Assembly (NCBI RefSeq): GCF_050320075.1
Contig: NZ_CP190022.1
DNA: 64,000 nt
Direction: 5' to 3' (one strand)
Source of the DNA: Escherichia coli
GTDB taxonomy: Bacteria > Pseudomonadota > Gammaproteobacteria > Enterobacterales > Enterobacteriaceae
The first letter of the stretch is position 1. Each line of letters starts with the position of its first letter. Of the stretch, positions 23,894 through 31,224 are shown in pieces. A model generated the notes under the pieces. The model was not told where the DNA came from. It did no database searches and worked only from the letters and a program-made list of their open reading frames with translations. The translations under genes were made by a program, and so were the position numbers.

Positions 23894-24471
23894 TCTTTTT
23901 TCTCCGTTTTCGGGGGATACAGGATGTCTGGTACGCGATGACTGAGTGATTCCGGCAGCGGAGCCAGCGGGAAACACTGGAAGCGGCGCGTGATCCATCC
24001 CTGACGGTTACGGTTATCGATGAGCGTGAAGGTACGACGCTTCACGCGTTTCAGTGTCGGGGTGTCGCTTTCCATGACCGGCCAGTCTCCGGCTGTGAGT
24101 GCCGGTGTGCCGGGGACATCCGGCCACAGCCAGGTGTTGTCAGACATCAGCGCCGTGAGAGGCGAGGGCAGAAGCCAGTGAATGACATGCTGTATATCAA
24201 AAGGCGGTCGCTCCGGCACGTTAACCTGCCAGGTGGCCGTTGTTATCAGCGTGCCTGTCTCTCCGGGCAGGGCCAGGCGAATACCACTCATCTCCCCGTC
24301 AGCCCGTCTGTCACTGGCAAAAATGACCCGGGGATTGGGGGACGGTCGCAGTGTGAAGCAGGCGGACGGCAGGGTGAAGCTGAAACTGTCACCGTCCACG
24401 CGCAGCGTTTTCAGGAAGACCTGTCCCCGTGCAGGACGCCGGCAGCGGGGAGTGATGTGTATGCTGTACAT
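23854..24471 (-). CDS. traV: TraV
   Basis: 205 aa between traW and traU; named by synteny. Confidence 0.5.
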   Translation of the reverse strand: MYSIHITPRCRRPARGQVFLKTLRVDGDSFSFTLPSACFTLRPSPNPRVIFASDRRADGEMSGIRLALPGETGTLITTATWQVNVPERPPFDIQHVIHWLLPSPLTALMSDNTWLWPDVPGTPALTAGDWPVMESDTPTLKRVKRRTFTLIDNRNRQGWITRRFQCFPLAPLPESLSHRVPDILYPPKTEKKECKDNLQPHCLHS

Positions 24472-27400
24472 CAGAGGTGATATCCCTGCTTACGGATGAG
24501 TTCCGCAGCCAGATCATGGATGACGTTTTCACTGTCATGTGTACGGGCGCGGTGTTCTATCAGTGAGGTGGCTGAACCACGGGGAAAGTTTTCTGCCAGG
24601 ATCTGGCGTGCCCGCAGTGACCCGAGCTCCTGCGTCAGCGCACGTCTCAGGGCGCTGTCTTTGGGTGAGGAATTCAGAGCCCACAGCTCCAGTGGACCGA
24701 GAGTGAATTTCAGGATCCGGGCCAGCGTACCGTTTTTTACACGGAACACAGCCAGTACCGGGACACCGCTGCCATCCGGTGCAGCCCCTTCCGGCATTTT
24801 CAGAAAGCGCCGCAGGGTGACTTCAGGGACACCAAAATTATCCCGCAGAAACGGAATTTCGTCAGGGCGGTAACGCAGCAACCAGAGGGTGTTGGCGGAT
24901 TTGAGAACTGCCGGTGGATAGTCCTGCAGTAGCTGGGTGCTCAGCACTGTGCGTATCCCGAACTTACGCTGCTCCAGCTCCTGGGTGTCCAGGGCTTCCC
25001 AGATGAAGTTGATCCCTTTTGCATTGTGCAGTTCGTCATAGACTTTGGTCTTGACCTCCTGATCAAGCTGTTCAATGCGGCGGAAAATCACCTCATGGTA
25101 GCGTGGGTCGAGATTTTTCCGTATTTCCTCCTGATACTGCGGCAGGACAAAATCCCCGCCGGCGATTTGTCCTGCCAGCAGGTACATGATGCCGGTGCGC
25201 AGACGCCCGGCAGGTGTCTTGTCACCGGCCACATTGTTCAGATCAACGGCCACAACGCGGGTGTCGGGGCTGAGCATAAACCGGGTACAGCCGGACATCA
25301 TCGGGTAGTCACTGTGTCCCTGATCGAGGGCACGGCGGATGTAGTCCAGTAACAATTCTGCTGAGTTATCGCGCTGAACTGTGCCGAACACATCCCGGAT
25401 GGATGGCTGTCCCAGCAGGGCGGACATTTCAGCCAGCAGGGGCATGGCCTGGTAGTGTGCCCGCTGGGCTGCGGGGATATTGCCAGCCATATGCAGCATG
25501 TCCCTGATTTCAAACCAGGTGGCAGCATTCCACCATCCAGCGTCATGTTGTTCTGCGATGCCACTCTCTTCCAGGGCGAGATCCACAAGGGGCTCTGTTC
25601 CTGCACGGTACAGTCTGGGGTTGTTTTCGCCATACTCCCTGAAGGCCAGATCCACCAGGTTGCTTATGATTTGCCGGGTGTCACCGGGATTACAGGGCTG
25701 ACCGGTGCCGGTATCCACGCACAGTGCGCAGAGTACAGATACCATGAAGTTCTTTTCCGGGGTGGCGGGTTTTTTAGCACCGTACATCACATCAAACAGG
25801 TTACGGGTGTGTTCCGGATCATTGCTCAGAATGATCCCCACGGCTTCGTCCTTTCTCTGCTCCGGCAGGCTGTCACGGATAAGCTGTACCAGTCCCTGTG
25901 CACTGAATCCCTTGTCGATATAGGCAATGAAAGGCAGGTTCTTCTGGGCTGAGGCTATCTGGATCTCCGACAGTGCGTTGATGAGTACCGATTTGCCCAG
26001 ACCGGGTGCGCCGGGCGTCAGTTCCGTGTGCTTGTTCTGTTGTGACGATGCCAGTGCGACCTCCCATGCAGAGCCGTCCTCGGTGTGCATCATCAGATTT
26101 CCCTGTCCCCGCCAGACAGAGCCTGCCCTGTTCAGGGGAAACAGGGAAAGGGCGTGTGAAAGGGGCGGGTAAAGGGGGACTGGACCGGAACCGTGGGAGG
26201 CTGCCAGAACCGTGTTCACCCAGGCACGTCTCGGATCACCGAAGGTGGTGGTGGTGCCGCATACCCCCCAGCCTTCCAGCGCAGATTTCAGGAGAGCCTG
26301 GTTACGGGTACAGACTTCCCGGCTGTTTCCCCATGTGGTGGCAACAATGGTCATGATACAGACCGGATCATGTTTGTTGATGTCATTCAGCATCATCACC
26401 GAGTCATACATGGGCCGGAGAGGGGAAATAAAGCTGCTGTAGGTCAGCAGGGTTTTCTTGACCCCAAGCGCCTTCATGCCGCCGGGCATCAGATCCATCC
26501 GGATACGCCAGGGGATTGCGCGGGGCACATCCCTGACCAGCTGGTTGAATGTCCGCAGATTCTGGGGGGGCAGGGTAATGGCGACCATACCGTGCCAGAG
26601 GTCACCGGCCTTTATCAGGCTGCCGTGTGTTTCAGGCTGTGTGGTGAATAACTGCAGATTCAGCGACGGTGCGTGGAATACAGAGGTATCCTCGCCCTGT
26701 CGCCAGCCGGCAGGACGGGCATCTTCAGGCAGATGAGGCTGCCATACTGCAGGTGTGCTGTTGCGCTCCAGTTGACGGCGGATTTCCCGTCCCACTTCAT
26801 GAATATCTATCAGGCGAACCAGCAGACCATCAGAATCATGTGTCAGGGCCTGCTCCAGCGTGTCCAGAAAGGCGTCATGCCGTATTTTGAGTGCGGAAAG
26901 TGTCCAGCGCCATGGATCCTGCGCAAATCGGGCTGGCGGAGCGTGTTCAGCGAGTTTCCTGATACGGGTCTGGTGGTCCTTGCGATCGGTCCGGCTCAGC
27001 AGTTCTTCAGAGCTCCAGACGGTCAGCCAGCAGCGTTCCCGGACAAGCCAGGGGGTGAGCGTGGTGACTTTTTCATCCAGAACGTCCTGAAGCAGGATCC
27101 CCGTGCGTGCGATGGATTTTCGCTGGGGTAAGAGCATGGCTTCGATTTCATCCCTTCCACGCTCCGGATCGCGTTCGAAAACAAAACTGATTTTGTGACC
27201 GATGTTTTTCCAGGCAGTGTTCATTCGCTCTGCCAGCGCTGTAATCAGTGATTCCAGTGTGCCGGGGGCTGTCAGGTCCGGGTTTTCATCCATTTCTTTC
27301 AGGGCACCGCTGATTTCAAAGACGGAAAGGTAATACCCCTGTTTGGTGGTGGCAATGTAGGGGGCTTTCAGCCAGGGGCGGCGTTCGCGGTCCTGCTGGT

Positions 27401-27527
27401 CCAGACCGATGACGGTGTGCAGATCACAGTAATCGGGGAAGAATGCGGAAACGGAATACCGTGACAGGGTACTGATACAGTCTTCAATGGCAAAAATAAT
27501 GCGGTTGATATTCATGGCATGGAGCAC
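24471..27527 (-). CDS. traU: TraU, DotO/IcmB-like ATPase
   Basis: 1018 aa; Walker A LTPGAPGLGKSVLIN. Confidence 0.8.
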   Translation of the reverse strand: MLHAMNINRIIFAIEDCISTLSRYSVSAFFPDYCDLHTVIGLDQQDRERRPWLKAPYIATTKQGYYLSVFEISGALKEMDENPDLTAPGTLESLITALAERMNTAWKNIGHKISFVFERDPERGRDEIEAMLLPQRKSIARTGILLQDVLDEKVTTLTPWLVRERCWLTVWSSEELLSRTDRKDHQTRIRKLAEHAPPARFAQDPWRWTLSALKIRHDAFLDTLEQALTHDSDGLLVRLIDIHEVGREIRRQLERNSTPAVWQPHLPEDARPAGWRQGEDTSVFHAPSLNLQLFTTQPETHGSLIKAGDLWHGMVAITLPPQNLRTFNQLVRDVPRAIPWRIRMDLMPGGMKALGVKKTLLTYSSFISPLRPMYDSVMMLNDINKHDPVCIMTIVATTWGNSREVCTRNQALLKSALEGWGVCGTTTTFGDPRRAWVNTVLAASHGSGPVPLYPPLSHALSLFPLNRAGSVWRGQGNLMMHTEDGSAWEVALASSQQNKHTELTPGAPGLGKSVLINALSEIQIASAQKNLPFIAYIDKGFSAQGLVQLIRDSLPEQRKDEAVGIILSNDPEHTRNLFDVMYGAKKPATPEKNFMVSVLCALCVDTGTGQPCNPGDTRQIISNLVDLAFREYGENNPRLYRAGTEPLVDLALEESGIAEQHDAGWWNAATWFEIRDMLHMAGNIPAAQRAHYQAMPLLAEMSALLGQPSIRDVFGTVQRDNSAELLLDYIRRALDQGHSDYPMMSGCTRFMLSPDTRVVAVDLNNVAGDKTPAGRLRTGIMYLLAGQIAGGDFVLPQYQEEIRKNLDPRYHEVIFRRIEQLDQEVKTKVYDELHNAKGINFIWEALDTQELEQRKFGIRTVLSTQLLQDYPPAVLKSANTLWLLRYRPDEIPFLRDNFGVPEVTLRRFLKMPEGAAPDGSGVPVLAVFRVKNGTLARILKFTLGPLELWALNSSPKDSALRRALTQELGSLRARQILAENFPRGSATSLIEHRARTHDSENVIHDLAAELIRKQGYHL

Positions 27528-27690
27528 TCCGGTAAGGATGAATCATCACGGTCTGATATTTTTTGATGCCACAGCAGGGGATGTGGCATGAAAAAACAGC
27601 AGAGAAAATAAATAATCTGTTGAGGGGCAGGTGCGTATTTCTGTGTGATTACAGTAAATAATAAAAATGTAATAAGGTGGAAACACGCTG

Positions 27691-28074
27691 TCAGCGTAGT
27701 GAATTTACTGGCGGATAAGTGATTTTATTAATATGTACAACAATAGATTTTCTTCTTTTATTTTGTATAAATACCGGTGGGACATAAAAGAAACGGAGAC
27801 TGCAGAGACAGAGATGCAGTTGTTTTCCCCGTTTCCTTAATGAAAATTCAGTCAGGGGTGTGGCCGGATAATTATGCCGGGCGCTTAATTCCCTGTTGAA
27901 CTGAAGTATTCCGGCAATATTCAGCAGTATGCCGGCCAGCCTGCCGTCATCATCCCGAAGGAACCGACGGAGTAGCCGGTGCTCTTCTTTGGCGGTACTG
28001 TCAGCTTTTCCGGCCAGGTGTGCGAGGATGAGTGTTATAAGCGTCTCCGGGGATATGCGGTGAATTTTCATCAT
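27691..28074 (-). CDS. Hypothetical protein (127 aa) between traT and traU
   Basis: ATGA start/stop overlap with the upstream ORF and aggagaag RBS; C-terminal 40 codons run into an AT-rich stretch. Confidence 0.4.
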   Translation of the reverse strand: MMKIHRISPETLITLILAHLAGKADSTAKEEHRLLRRFLRDDDGRLAGILLNIAGILQFNRELSARHNYPATPLTEFSLRKRGKQLHLCLCSLRFFYVPPVFIQNKRRKSIVVHINKITYPPVNSLR

Positions 28075-28430
28075 TCTTCTCCTGATTTTGTCGGGGGTAC
28101 ACCCGGATAAATAAACTGCTGGCGGCGAATGAAAAAATCACAGAAGGGCATATCCGGTAATTCCGGGAGACCGGATACGGCAATATCCATCCATGAGAGA
28201 TAGTTATCGACACTCACTGTGACGGTGATGCTGTTATGGGTACGGGATCTTTCATGAATTTCTGCAGCCAGAAAGAGCAGCCAGCCGCCGTTAAATGCCG
28301 GGTGGCGGAGAATGAACCGGGCAATTTCTTTTTCATCTCCGTCAGGCGGAATATTGTCAGTCAGCGTCCGTATAATAAAACGCCGGAATGAATCTGCAGT
28401 GAACTGATATCCGGCAGAGTGTGTATCCAT
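28071..28430 (-). CDS. Hypothetical protein (119 aa) between traT and traU
   Basis: Translationally coupled to the next ORF; no family recognised. Confidence 0.45.
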   Translation of the reverse strand: MDTHSAGYQFTADSFRRFIIRTLTDNIPPDGDEKEIARFILRHPAFNGGWLLFLAAEIHERSRTHNSITVTVSVDNYLSWMDIAVSGLPELPDMPFCDFFIRRQQFIYPGVPPTKSGEE

Positions 28431-28497
28431 TTTTGTTCCTCTGTAAGTTGAATGTGTGCCGGCAGAATGTCATCGGTACCGGTGTGGGAGGGCTGCA

Positions 28498-29316
28498 TCA
28501 CCAGACGAACTCCCTGTCAGGAAACGAATCCGGCAGCAGAATGAGCGCCACCCCGTCCATTTTCTCCCTCAACGTTTTACGCTGTGCCGGCGGCCAGCGG
28601 CGCAGTGCATCAGCAAAATCCGCCGGACGCCAGGTGCGAAATTTCTCCTCAACGGCCAGGCGGTTCTGTACCAGGGCATTCAGTACGGCCCGTCCCTGTC
28701 TGACTCGCTTACGCTCATCGCTGAAAATTTCCTTCAGTGCCCGTGCATTGAGAGCAACTACCGAGGCCGGATGCAAATCAGGGAGCCAGACCATCACCCC
28801 CTGTGCGGCAGCGTAGCCGTTCAGGCAGTGCCAGGCGTGGCAGAAGACACAGAGATGAAAGGGCGGGCCTTCCGGCTGCAGCAGTTCACTTTCATTTTCG
28901 CTGAGTGCATCTGTTGTGACGATTTGTGACTTTTCCACATGACGCAGGGCCAGTCGCCTGGCCGACAGGCGGGCCTGTGCCAGGGACCGCTCCGCATCCT
29001 GCAGGGTTCGGGTGTGTTTCTTTTTTTCGTCAGCGTTTTCCGGTACCGGATGTTTTTTCAGGCGCATCACCCGGGTGAGGTTTTTTTCCAGCAGGACGAC
29101 CGTATCCCGGCAGGTGTCAGCCATCTGCTGTAATGGCCATGAATCCTCCAGAATGAAGCGGTGAGTGACGGTCCTGCGACAGCAGGGACAGCGTCCGGGT
29201 GTTGAGAGCACGGGTGGTGGCAGCAGGGATTCACCGCTGAATACCGTGTCCGGTTGCGGGAGCGGGAAAAGCCAGCGTTCCCGGGCCGGGGCGATGAGTG
29301 GCGGTGTTTTGTTCAT
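28498..29316 (-). CDS. traT: TraT, Cys-rich DotN/IcmJ-like protein
   Basis: 272 aa; Cys clusters PGRCPCCRR and HLCVFCHAWHC; position before traU matches icmJ-icmB order. Confidence 0.55.
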   Translation of the reverse strand: MNKTPPLIAPARERWLFPLPQPDTVFSGESLLPPPVLSTPGRCPCCRRTVTHRFILEDSWPLQQMADTCRDTVVLLEKNLTRVMRLKKHPVPENADEKKKHTRTLQDAERSLAQARLSARRLALRHVEKSQIVTTDALSENESELLQPEGPPFHLCVFCHAWHCLNGYAAAQGVMVWLPDLHPASVVALNARALKEIFSDERKRVRQGRAVLNALVQNRLAVEEKFRTWRPADFADALRRWPPAQRKTLREKMDGVALILLPDSFPDREFVW

Positions 29317-29482
29317 ACGTTTTTCTCTCTGTATACAGGGTGACGGCAGCCAGAATCAGTGCTGCGATGGCGGTGGAATAACATTCTGCAAACACAAACT
29401 CCTGATTATCCCGGTTGTCGCGGGCAATCACGTTGCCGTGCTCTGTTCTGAGCAGGGTGAAAGGGGGCAGCTCACAGGACAT
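29231..29482 (-). CDS. TraS-like small protein (83 aa)
   Basis: Internal Met MSCELPPF with gaagagga RBS; overlaps the traT start by about 85 nt. Confidence 0.3.
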   Translation of the reverse strand: MSCELPPFTLLRTEHGNVIARDNRDNQEFVFAECYSTAIAALILAAVTLYTERKTYEQNTATHRPGPGTLAFPAPATGHGIQR

Positions 29483-29538
29483 GGTCTGGTCCTCTTCATT
29501 GTGTGAAGACGGCACCGGGAAACCGGTGCCGTTGTGGA

Positions 29539-29937
29539 TTAACTGATGGAGACCGGAGAAAGACCGAGCGTTTTCTGTCCACTGCTCATCATTTCCGGTA
29601 CGACGGCAAGACAGGCACCGACCACAATGGACAGTATGCAGGCCACCCCTGCTCCGGGTTTTTTACCGATTTGTTTGAGGCCAAGCAGGCCGGCAATAAA
29701 GAGCACCAGACCAATAACCTGAGCGATGGTCACAAATGAACTGCTGGAGCCTTTTGCACCATCGCCAACGGTTTTGATCATATCGAATAGGGTGTTTGCC
29801 ATCGCTGTGTGGGGCAGCAGTATCACGGGAAGCAGAAGTAACAGGCGTATCAGCCGATCACGGCAGGCCACCAGGCATAACTGAACATAAATAAATGCAG
29901 CGCACAGACGCGCCGCCATGGCACGGAATCGTGACAT
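29539..29937 (-). CDS. traR: TraR, IcmD/DotP-like small membrane protein
   Basis: 132 aa, hydrophobic; named by synteny. Confidence 0.55.
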   Translation of the reverse strand: MSRFRAMAARLCAAFIYVQLCLVACRDRLIRLLLLLPVILLPHTAMANTLFDMIKTVGDGAKGSSSSFVTIAQVIGLVLFIAGLLGLKQIGKKPGAGVACILSIVVGACLAVVPEMMSSGQKTLGLSPVSIS

Positions 29938-29983
29938 ATAGTCTCCTTAACTAACAGACTGAATTACTGAAAATGAATGTGGA

Positions 29984-30514
29984 TCAGAAGGCGAGACCAA
30001 GACTCGCCAGAGAGGCATCGATGACGCGATCGATAAAAACCAGCAGAACGCCGGCAACAAACTTGACGTTTCCTTTGCTGATGGACTCACTGCTGCTCAG
30101 GGCGGTATGCCCGTCCAGCAGGGATTTACGCCAGATGGAAATGCCGTTCATGGCAAACCCCACTCCGGCCAGTTTTACCAGTGAGAGCATGGCATTGGCG
30201 GCACCGGCAGCGGCACCAAAGGTGGTTGGTTGTACATAAGCGATAGGGCCGAAGGAATCTGCCCTGAATCCCATCTGGGTACCCCCGGCATTGATGAAGG
30301 ATGGCAGGGCGACCAGCATGCCGCAGATGACGATACCGGCGATAAATTTTCCCGGTCCCATACTGTGACGCCCTTCAGCCCGGGCACGCATCAGATGACC
30401 AATCAGGCCGATAATCCCCAGCAGCTCTCCCCAGGTGAAGAGAAACTCCATGCCTGCACTGAATATACCGCTGGCAAAGTTCTCTATGGCTGTCAGGGCA
30501 TCAATGCTCATCAT
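29984..30514 (-). CDS. traQ: TraQ, IcmC/DotE-like membrane protein
   Basis: 176 aa, TM helices; matches the R64 TraQ size as I recall it. Confidence 0.6.
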   Translation of the reverse strand: MMSIDALTAIENFASGIFSAGMEFLFTWGELLGIIGLIGHLMRARAEGRHSMGPGKFIAGIVICGMLVALPSFINAGGTQMGFRADSFGPIAYVQPTTFGAAAGAANAMLSLVKLAGVGFAMNGISIWRKSLLDGHTALSSSESISKGNVKFVAGVLLVFIDRVIDASLASLGLAF

Positions 30515-31224
30515 CGTAATGTACCGGCAGAGGTGATGACTGAGCGGCTGGACGGTTCAATCCGGGTGATGGTGATATTCCCCAGCCTGTCACCTTCCCG
30601 TACTGCCCAGGCGCTACCCTGCCAGCGGATCCAGGCCATTCCTTTTTCCACCGACATGATTTGCATGCCCTGCAGGCGGGAAGGCGGGGTTTTCGTTGAC
30701 TGGCCGTTATTCCCGGTCGGGATTTGCAGTGGTCCCTGCATCTGCAGGGCATGCACCTGCTTACGGGTTTCATCAAGCAACTGACGGGTTTCCTGTGCCC
30801 AGGCCTCATCTTTCCGTATGGTGTCGCCAAGGGTTGTGATGCTCTCTTTCAGCATGGTCAGGGTACGTCGGATTTCCTCATCCCGCCTGTCCAGCTCTGC
30901 TTTCAGGTCACGGGCAAGCTGCTGCATGTCTGCCTGTGGGGTGACAGGAGGCGCGGACATGGTGTTTCCGCTCCCGGTCTCCGTTATGGGCATGGGCTCT
31001 GCCCAGCTTTCGGCTGCGGGCGGTGTGACATCGAAGCCTGCATCTGCAGGGGGCTCTGAGGGTGTCCGCAGAAACTTGTACCAGATGGCGGCCAGGATGA
31101 TGAGGGCACAGCCGGCCCAGACCGGCAGGCTGTATCCCATATACTGGCGTTTCAGGAAGGATTTGCCGGATGCCGGTGCCGGCGTTTCGCCAAAGCTGCC
31201 GGGATCTTCATGTTCGTTTTTCAT
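30511..31224 (-). CDS. traP: TraP, DotF/IcmG-like bitopic protein
   Basis: 237 aa; one TM helix and a coiled-coil-like region; ATGA overlap with traQ. Confidence 0.55.
   Translation of the reverse strand: MKNEHEDPGSFGETPAPASGKSFLKRQYMGYSLPVWAGCALIILAAIWYKFLRTPSEPPADAGFDVTPPAAESWAEPMPITETGSGNTMSAPPVTPQADMQQLARDLKAELDRRDEEIRRTLTMLKESITTLGDTIRKDEAWAQETRQLLDETRKQVHALQMQGPLQIPTGNNGQSTKTPPSRLQGMQIMSVEKGMAWIRWQGSAWAVREGDRLGNITITRIEPSSRSVITSAGTLR

Follow-up and report, generated by a model that had tools for sequence, protein, structure and literature searches.

Gene content and plasmid setting

The window analysed here, a stretch of 64,000 nt from Escherichia coli (contig NZ_CP190022.1), carries the traR-traS-traT-traU part of an IncK2/Z (MPF_I, IncI-like) conjugation operon on its minus strand, and the coordinates of the features considered below are collected in Table 1. 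The 1.2-kb region under study was 100% identical to the IncK2/Z plasmid pXDL-2. Among plasmids in PLSDB, 444 relatives of this region were retrieved at an identity of at least 90%, 440 of which are typed as conjugative, and every relative looked at in detail was MPF_I. The preliminary description had named the two genes a traS-like ORF and a Cys-rich traT, names that are right in IncI nomenclature, with the pair lying between traR and traU; the interval it singled out, 28498-29515, is bounded by the traT stop and by the GTG with which the longest traS ORF begins. TraS and TraT of the F plasmid, associated with entry and surface exclusion, respectively, have only these names in common with the IncI-type proteins and show no homology to them, and neither TraS nor TraT of the window matched the enterobacterial TraT lipoprotein family in Pfam or NCBIfam.

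The same traQ-traR-traS-traT-traU order is found in IncI1 plasmids (R64, ColIb-P9, and the IncI1/Igamma Plm, NC_019097). The likeness to IncI1 includes the proteins, with 66% identity in the TraS core, 60% identity in TraT and the same Cys clusters, as well as the junction, where the genes overlap in the +1 phase and the traT Shine-Dalgarno site lies within the 3' end of traS. In contrast, the IncI1 traS has 62 codons and a stop 17 nt into traT, compared to 83 codons and 86 nt in the window. Likewise, the TraT leader of the window is 6 codons longer than that of IncI1 and is devoid of the stop-carrying Ile-Lys codons, and two additional hypothetical genes are situated between traT and traU. 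These two small ORFs are unannotated and had no match in Pfam, NCBIfam or PHROG. A comparable pair (120 aa and 125 aa) was observed in one Salmonella-borne lineage (L015), and the pair was absent from IncI1 (L004, L018) and Pectobacterium (L016). In plasmid pTMSA992 (L009), an ISEcp1 transposase gene begins about 340 nt 3' of traT (1740 onward in that record, equivalent to about 28160 in the window) and occupies the place of the 119-aa ORF, so the traT/traU segment tolerates insertion. A promoter and terminator scan of 27500-30600 gave counts that did not exceed those of shuffled sequence, and an internal traT promoter is therefore without support.

Table 1. Features of the traR-traU segment, in window coordinates.
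Feature	Position	Strand	Description	Basis or occurrence
TraR	29539-29937	minus	DUF6750, 132 aa	ORF list and sequence
Longest traS ORF	29231-29515	minus	94 aa from GTG	ORF list
traS Shine-Dalgarno site	29490-29495	minus	AGAGGA, 7 nt before ATG	sequence
traS	29231-29482	minus	83 codons (MSCELPPF...GIQR) plus TGA stop at 29231-29233	internal ATG at 29482
TraS conserved core	29312-29482	minus	codons 1-57, four beta-strands and one helix	
traT Shine-Dalgarno-like site	29325-29330	minus	weak AGAGAG, inside the traS core	
traS/traT overlap	29231-29316	minus	86 nt	ORF coordinates
TraS tail	29234-29311	minus	codons 58-83, QNTATHRPGPGTLAFPAPATGHGIQR, inside traT	IncB/O/K/Z plasmids only
traS codon 58	29309-29311	minus	CAA	C at 29311 is T (TAA stop) in 3/444 plasmids
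traT	28498-29316	minus	272 aa, starts MNKTPPL	ORF list, family alignment
TraT Cys cluster 1	29179-29190	minus	C43-P-C45-C46	family alignment
traT Met65 codon	29122-29124	minus	start of the 209-aa product in some RefSeq records; rejected as true start	
TraT Cys/His cluster 2	28825-28851	minus	C156 xx C159 H160 xx H163 C164	family alignment
Small ORF	28071-28430	minus	119 aa, unannotated, between traT and traU	
Small ORF	27691-28074	minus	127 aa, unannotated, between traT and traU	
TraU	24471-27527	minus	1018 aa ORF	ORF list

Within the longest traS ORF, the 83-aa frame with a good ribosome-binding site that had been reported earlier was recovered, with its ATG at 29482 and AGAGGA at a distance of 7 nt. 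All TraS homologues of the set begin at the Met encoded at 29482, and most of the lineages compared have the Shine-Dalgarno site. TraS occupies the position of an IncI-type TraS, between traR (DUF6750) and traT in an MPF_I transfer operon. Its length does not follow the IncI type (59-64 aa, stop 14-17 nt into traT), with 83 aa and an overlap of 86 nt; outside the IncB/O/K/Z group, TraS measures 59-65 aa, and the 83-aa form was found in that group only.

The spacer between the traR stop (29539-29541) and traS bears a perfect 10-bp GC-rich hairpin at 29509-29532 on the minus strand (ACGGCACCGG-TTTC-CCGGTGCCGT), with a folding energy of dG -20.2 kcal/mol (z = -5.7). The hairpin occurs as two alleles in IncB/O/K/Z plasmids, with TTTC and GAAA loops that are reverse complements of each other, the pattern expected from a hairpin flip, and the stem is one base pair shorter in the GAAA allele. 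Hairpins of the GGCACCGG type were also located in the traR-traS spacer of an IncI1/Igamma plasmid (L004), of L018 and of Pectobacterium. This element may contribute to mRNA stability or act as an attenuator.

TraT and Legionella DotN

TraT contains seven Cys residues, of which C43, C45, C46, C156 and C159 are invariant in a family alignment of 28 homologues sharing 44-93% identity. It is homologous to IncI-type TraT over its full length, including the GRCxCC and LCxFCHAWH motifs; when compared to the IncI1/Igamma TraT, identity was 60% over 260 aa (E 1e-121), with the alignment beginning at window residue 12. Searches of Pfam and NCBIfam and phmmer and profile searches of the PDB returned nothing for TraT, and similarity to DotN in particular was not detected at E up to 10 by phmmer or by the profile search against PDB sequences.

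The AlphaFold2 model of TraT (pLDDT 84) was compared with the PDB by Foldseek. The top 8 matches were all Legionella DotN (5X42, 5X1H, 6SZ9 chain C), with probability 1.0, E-values of 5e-4 to 4e-3 and a TM-score of 0.50 normalised to DotN, over a partial alignment of approximately 130 of the 272 residues; no other protein gave a significant match. DotN of Legionella pneumophila (IcmJ; PDB 5X1H, 5X42, 6SZ9) is Cys-rich, like TraT. The fold match comes without detectable sequence similarity, and TraT carries a long helical hairpin spanning residues 60-123, a putative insertion relative to DotN. This hairpin is composed of two helices, H60-88 and H95-123, and corresponds to about 28948-29139 in the window. 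We take the gene order icmC-icmD-icmJ-icmB to parallel traQ-traR-(traS)-traT-traU, and we know of no traS-like gene upstream of icmJ in Legionella. In the IncL plasmid pOXA-48, Orf38, situated in the traST position, has been described as a structural homologue of DotN (PMC12365149; PMC6112013). The modelled DotN-like fold of TraT agrees with both the synteny and Orf38 of IncL pOXA-48. It adds fold-level support to the view of the IncI-type TraT as the plasmid counterpart of Legionella DotN/IcmJ, which belongs to the type IV coupling complex. By analogy, TraT is probably a coupling-complex subunit as well, and probably a cytoplasmic protein. It is not an outer-membrane lipoprotein and is unrelated to the TraT of the F plasmid.

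The traS/traT overlap and the TraS tail

An overlap of about 85 nt in another frame had been noted previously; it amounts to 86 nt, and the traT frame is +1 relative to traS. The junction was compared with DNA from IncI1/Igamma, Salmonella-borne variants and Pectobacterium, five further lineages in which traS comprises 59-64 codons and the overlap phase is the same throughout. The overlap measures 14 nt in Pectobacterium and 17 nt in the remaining four. In four of the five lineages, traS ends on a TAA that lies within TraT codons 5-6 (ATT-AAA/G, Ile-Lys), as in the leader M-K-T-P-I-K-E-D-W-L. In contrast, the leader of the window TraT, M-N-K-T-P-P-L-I-A-P-A-R-E-R-W-L, is six codons longer and does not include the Ile-Lys pair. 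Since the pair and its embedded TAA are gone, the traS frame continues to the TGA at 29231-29233. The 83-codon traS ORF with the identical TGA end was present in 13 of the 14 IncB/O/K/Z plasmids sampled. When five neighbouring tra genes were read in the equivalent relative frame, runs of at least 26 sense codons opened at 30% of the start points, and a stop rate of 0.041 per codon gives P = 0.34 for an open run of 26 codons. The tail is thus no longer than expected by chance (P about 0.3).

The ancestral traS ended at the TAA in TraT codons 5-6, 14-17 nt past the traT ATG, a typical short coupling overlap. In IncB/O/K/Z, the N-terminal leader of TraT was then remodelled, gaining six codons and losing the Ile-Lys pair. 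Once the stop was lost, ribosomes on traS would translate 26 further codons up to the TGA at 29231-29233, leading to an 83-aa TraS with a putatively disordered and unconstrained tail rich in Pro, Gly, Ala and Thr and to the 86-nt overlap. The loss of an orthologous stop corresponds to category iii among the causes of overlaps in Palleja et al. 2008 (PMC2478687), and Fonseca et al. 2013 modelled stop loss as the commonest neutral route to overlaps. The traS/traT pair resembles this class in being co-directional, in overlapping by more than 60 nt and in having an upstream gene longer than its orthologues. Unlike most stop-loss overlaps, the traS extension is not a sequencing or annotation error and is fixed in the plasmid lineage (441 of 444 records).

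Substitutions were tabulated for 14 aligned sequences, which represent closely related plasmids in two subclades, so that the sites are not fully independent. The traS-only core (166 nt) had 6 variable sites, 5 of them synonymous third-position changes. The overlap (86 nt) had 8 variable sites, 5 at position 3 of traT codons, and read in the traS frame, 7 were non-synonymous and 1 synonymous. The traT-only portion (733 nt) had 66 variable sites, 39 synonymous and 27 non-synonymous. Non-synonymous changes in the traS frame thus made up 7 of 8 sites in the tail compared to 1 of 6 in the core (Fisher p = 0.026, with small counts). The density of variable sites was 0.093 in the overlap and 0.090 in the traT-only portion, and this equality indicates that the second reading frame adds no constraint. 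Likewise, among eight 83-aa TraS sequences (the window and seven cluster representatives), the tail varied at 10 of its 26 residues and the core at 6 of its 57 (p = 0.006). AlphaFold2 gave the tail a pLDDT below 50 over residues 63-83, and it is predicted to be disordered. All of these lines agree, and the tail of TraS appears to be an unconstrained product of read-through whose sequence follows the traT frame. Within the overlap, only traT appears to be constrained, which the preliminary description had not anticipated.

A natural allele carries the stop within the tail. In this allele, codon 58 of traS is TAA. The substitution leaves Asn2 of traT unchanged (AAC to AAT) and results in a 57-aa TraS and an 8-nt overlap. 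Plasmid pYZLc23-1_NDM-13_96k, 99.8% identical to the window, carries this allele and was the sole exception to the 83-codon ORF among the 14 sampled plasmids. The allele was counted with an allele-specific 50-nt probe. Three of the 444 PLSDB relatives carry it, namely NZ_CP123269, NZ_CP032880 and NZ_CP095791, which are typed as conjugative and come from three different sources and hosts; among 5426 complete E. coli genomes, the probe detected it in 2. A stop can arise in the tail through only four single-base changes, and one of these, a transition, is the natural TAA allele.

The account as a whole, comprising stop loss in traS, a translated but neutral tail, a traT that starts at its own ATG and a DotN-like TraT, is in our judgement very probable. 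From the open frame and the Shine-Dalgarno site, we infer that traS and its tail are translated, and the tail would be neutral. The overlap is genuine as a pair of ORFs and presumably also in translation, and presumably does not represent dual-function coding. If so, the junction would constitute a clean and datable case of a long co-directional overlap that arose by stop-codon loss without selection.

The alternative that survives best, although we consider it improbable, is functional dual coding, in which the tail has been co-opted as a peptide or as a device throttling traT initiation. Both subclades retain the extended ORF, as do 441 of the 444 PLSDB relatives overall, a retention that could be read as selective, and on general knowledge, a stop that lies 86 nt beyond the traT ATG in place of 14-17 nt must alter termination-reinitiation coupling. 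However, just four mutations can create a stop in the tail, so persistence in 441 of 444 plasmids requires no selection, and the natural truncation persists in three plasmids typed as conjugative in different hosts. The variation described above also argues against this alternative, with the tail altered at 7 of its 8 variable sites and varying at 10 of 26 residues, no further drop in site variability across the overlap, and predicted disorder. Purifying selection in both frames was not observed, the counts being small, and a long overlap is not conserved in the other lineages, all five of which overlap by only 14-17 nt.

A Shine-Dalgarno site inside the upstream gene together with a stop just past the downstream ATG is the geometry classically tied to translational coupling, the efficiency of which is known to depend on distance. 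In the other lineages, GGAG stands at the place of the AGAGAG of the window, at about -13 to -10 and within the traS 3' end; each lineage compared provides traT with an ATG and a Shine-Dalgarno-like site of its own. The AGAGAG lies in an A-rich stretch and is unpaired in the minimum-free-energy fold. RNA folding of 150 nt around the traT start revealed no significant structure (z -0.19 in the window and -0.89 in IncI1), which also speaks against a throttling device. An unmasking of a sequestered traT ribosome-binding site by traS translation was considered and dropped on account of these z-scores. As the traS stop is now 86 nt downstream, translation of traT presumably begins independently of traS, from the weak AGAGAG site, while ribosomes on traS would read through. 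A co-option of the tail in the IncB/O/K/Z group, either through ribosome-traffic occlusion replacing termination-reinitiation coupling or through a disordered tail contacting the coupling complex, receives slightly less credence from us than dual coding in general. Under the occlusion reading, the ratio of TraS to the DotN-like TraT would be lower in a lineage-specific manner.

Coding status of traS and the start of traT

That traS is no gene but a chance ORF upstream of traT is very unlikely. This alternative could draw on the lack of a TraS family in Pfam, NCBIfam or PHROG, on a PDB fold search with the TraS model that gave no significant neighbour (best E about 1), and on the omission of traS from several annotations. 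In addition, transfer of R64 reportedly requires traT but not traS (PMC6112013). The core, however, is conserved across lineages. It showed 66% identity to the IncI1/Igamma TraS over aa 8-51 (E 8e-20), and the first approximately 55 residues were 53-65% identical to IncI1, Salmonella-borne variants and Pectobacterium, with 19 invariant columns in an alignment of 19 homologues. The core motif RTExGNVIA...QEFxFAEC matches that of the IncI1 TraS. The conservation of the traS core, like that of traT, across lineages is far beyond chance. The synonymous third-position changes at five of the six variable core sites, the Shine-Dalgarno site in most lineages and a confident AlphaFold2 core (pLDDT 84-93 over residues 1-50) point in the same direction. 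Moreover, TnSeq of pESBL scored both traS and traT as required, with the function of TraS noted as unknown (PMC4288162). In our own view, traS insertions may have polar effects on traT. Judged by these comparisons at the sequence level, traS is a real conserved gene for its first approximately 57 codons only. A hydrophobic stretch, STAIAALILAAVTLY, raised the idea of TraS as a tail-anchored membrane protein, which was rejected: at that place the IncI1 homologue carries charged residues (SDEIANIILEAVKRY), and the modelled helix is amphipathic and packs against a beta-sheet.

Equally unlikely is the lack of any true overlap, with traT starting further downstream, either at Met65 with a 209-aa product or at a codon other than ATG. 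The preliminary description had offered a downstream non-ATG start and a genuine overlap as alternatives, and the alignment of the 28 homologues upholds the overlap and rules out the downstream start, by the refuting criterion which that description had itself set. Conservation of the TraT N-terminus begins within about 14 residues of the MNKTPPL Met, with no alternative start in between. Most long co-directional overlaps are indeed start-codon mispredictions (PMC2478687), the RefSeq records of pL2-87 and pTMSA992 give a 209-aa product starting 192 nt downstream, and residues 1-17 of the TraT model are of low confidence. Nevertheless, TraT homologues consist of a short variable leader followed by WL-x-PLP-x-PD-VV...GRC-x-CC, and residues 15-64 are conserved among the 28 homologues (44-60% identity). 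Within the overlap, P20 and D23 are invariant and L16 and V25 near-invariant; directly past it, G41, R42, C43, C45 and C46 are invariant, as are F54, S59 and L62. The position at 29316 is the first start codon of the traT ORF, and codons 2-15 contain no ATG, GTG or TTG between Met1 and the WLFPLPQPD motif. Since it is the sole start codon upstream of a motif conserved in 28 homologues, traT is placed at the MNKTPPL ATG, 29316. Other lineages all start TraT 8-14 residues before the WL motif, and the substitutions in the overlap fall mostly at third positions of traT codons. The 209-aa annotation is almost certainly wrong, as a start at Met65 would lose the first Cys cluster.

A programmed +1 frameshift fusing TraS to TraT, for which the +1 phase would be kept, deserves hardly any credence: the phase is shared by all seven lineages examined and two singleton database proteins (P0010, P0012) are TraS-TraT fusions, but common descent explains the shared phase, the fusions are singletons from metagenome/Logan assemblies with apparent 1-nt indels in homopolymer runs and most likely errors, no +1 shift signal was recognised by eye at the junction, and no lineage lacks an ATG and a Shine-Dalgarno-like site for traT. 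P0010 and P0012 (Logan/ENA) are in-frame fusions resembling frame shifts in the A-rich stretch at about 29305-29325 of the window, and probably reflect assembly or sequencing errors.

The genes, their overlap and their names are already present in public annotation, and the finding is real but ordinary. RefSeq records of identical or near-identical plasmids contain the overlap as a TraS or hypothetical protein followed by a conjugal transfer protein TraT. Across records, traT appears either at its full 272 aa or as a 'hypothetical protein' of 209 aa beginning at Met65 (NC_025145, NZ_KR905387, 777-1403), and traS is annotated as 94 aa from the GTG (L001, 3086-3370), as 83 aa, as 57 aa, or not at all. 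The use of the present analysis lies in annotation repair for resistance plasmids: the start of traT is settled at the ATG at 29316 and that of traS at the ATG at 29482, with the last 26 codons of traS marked as lineage-specific read-through. The inconsistent annotation of traS and traT also involves the records L003 and L014.
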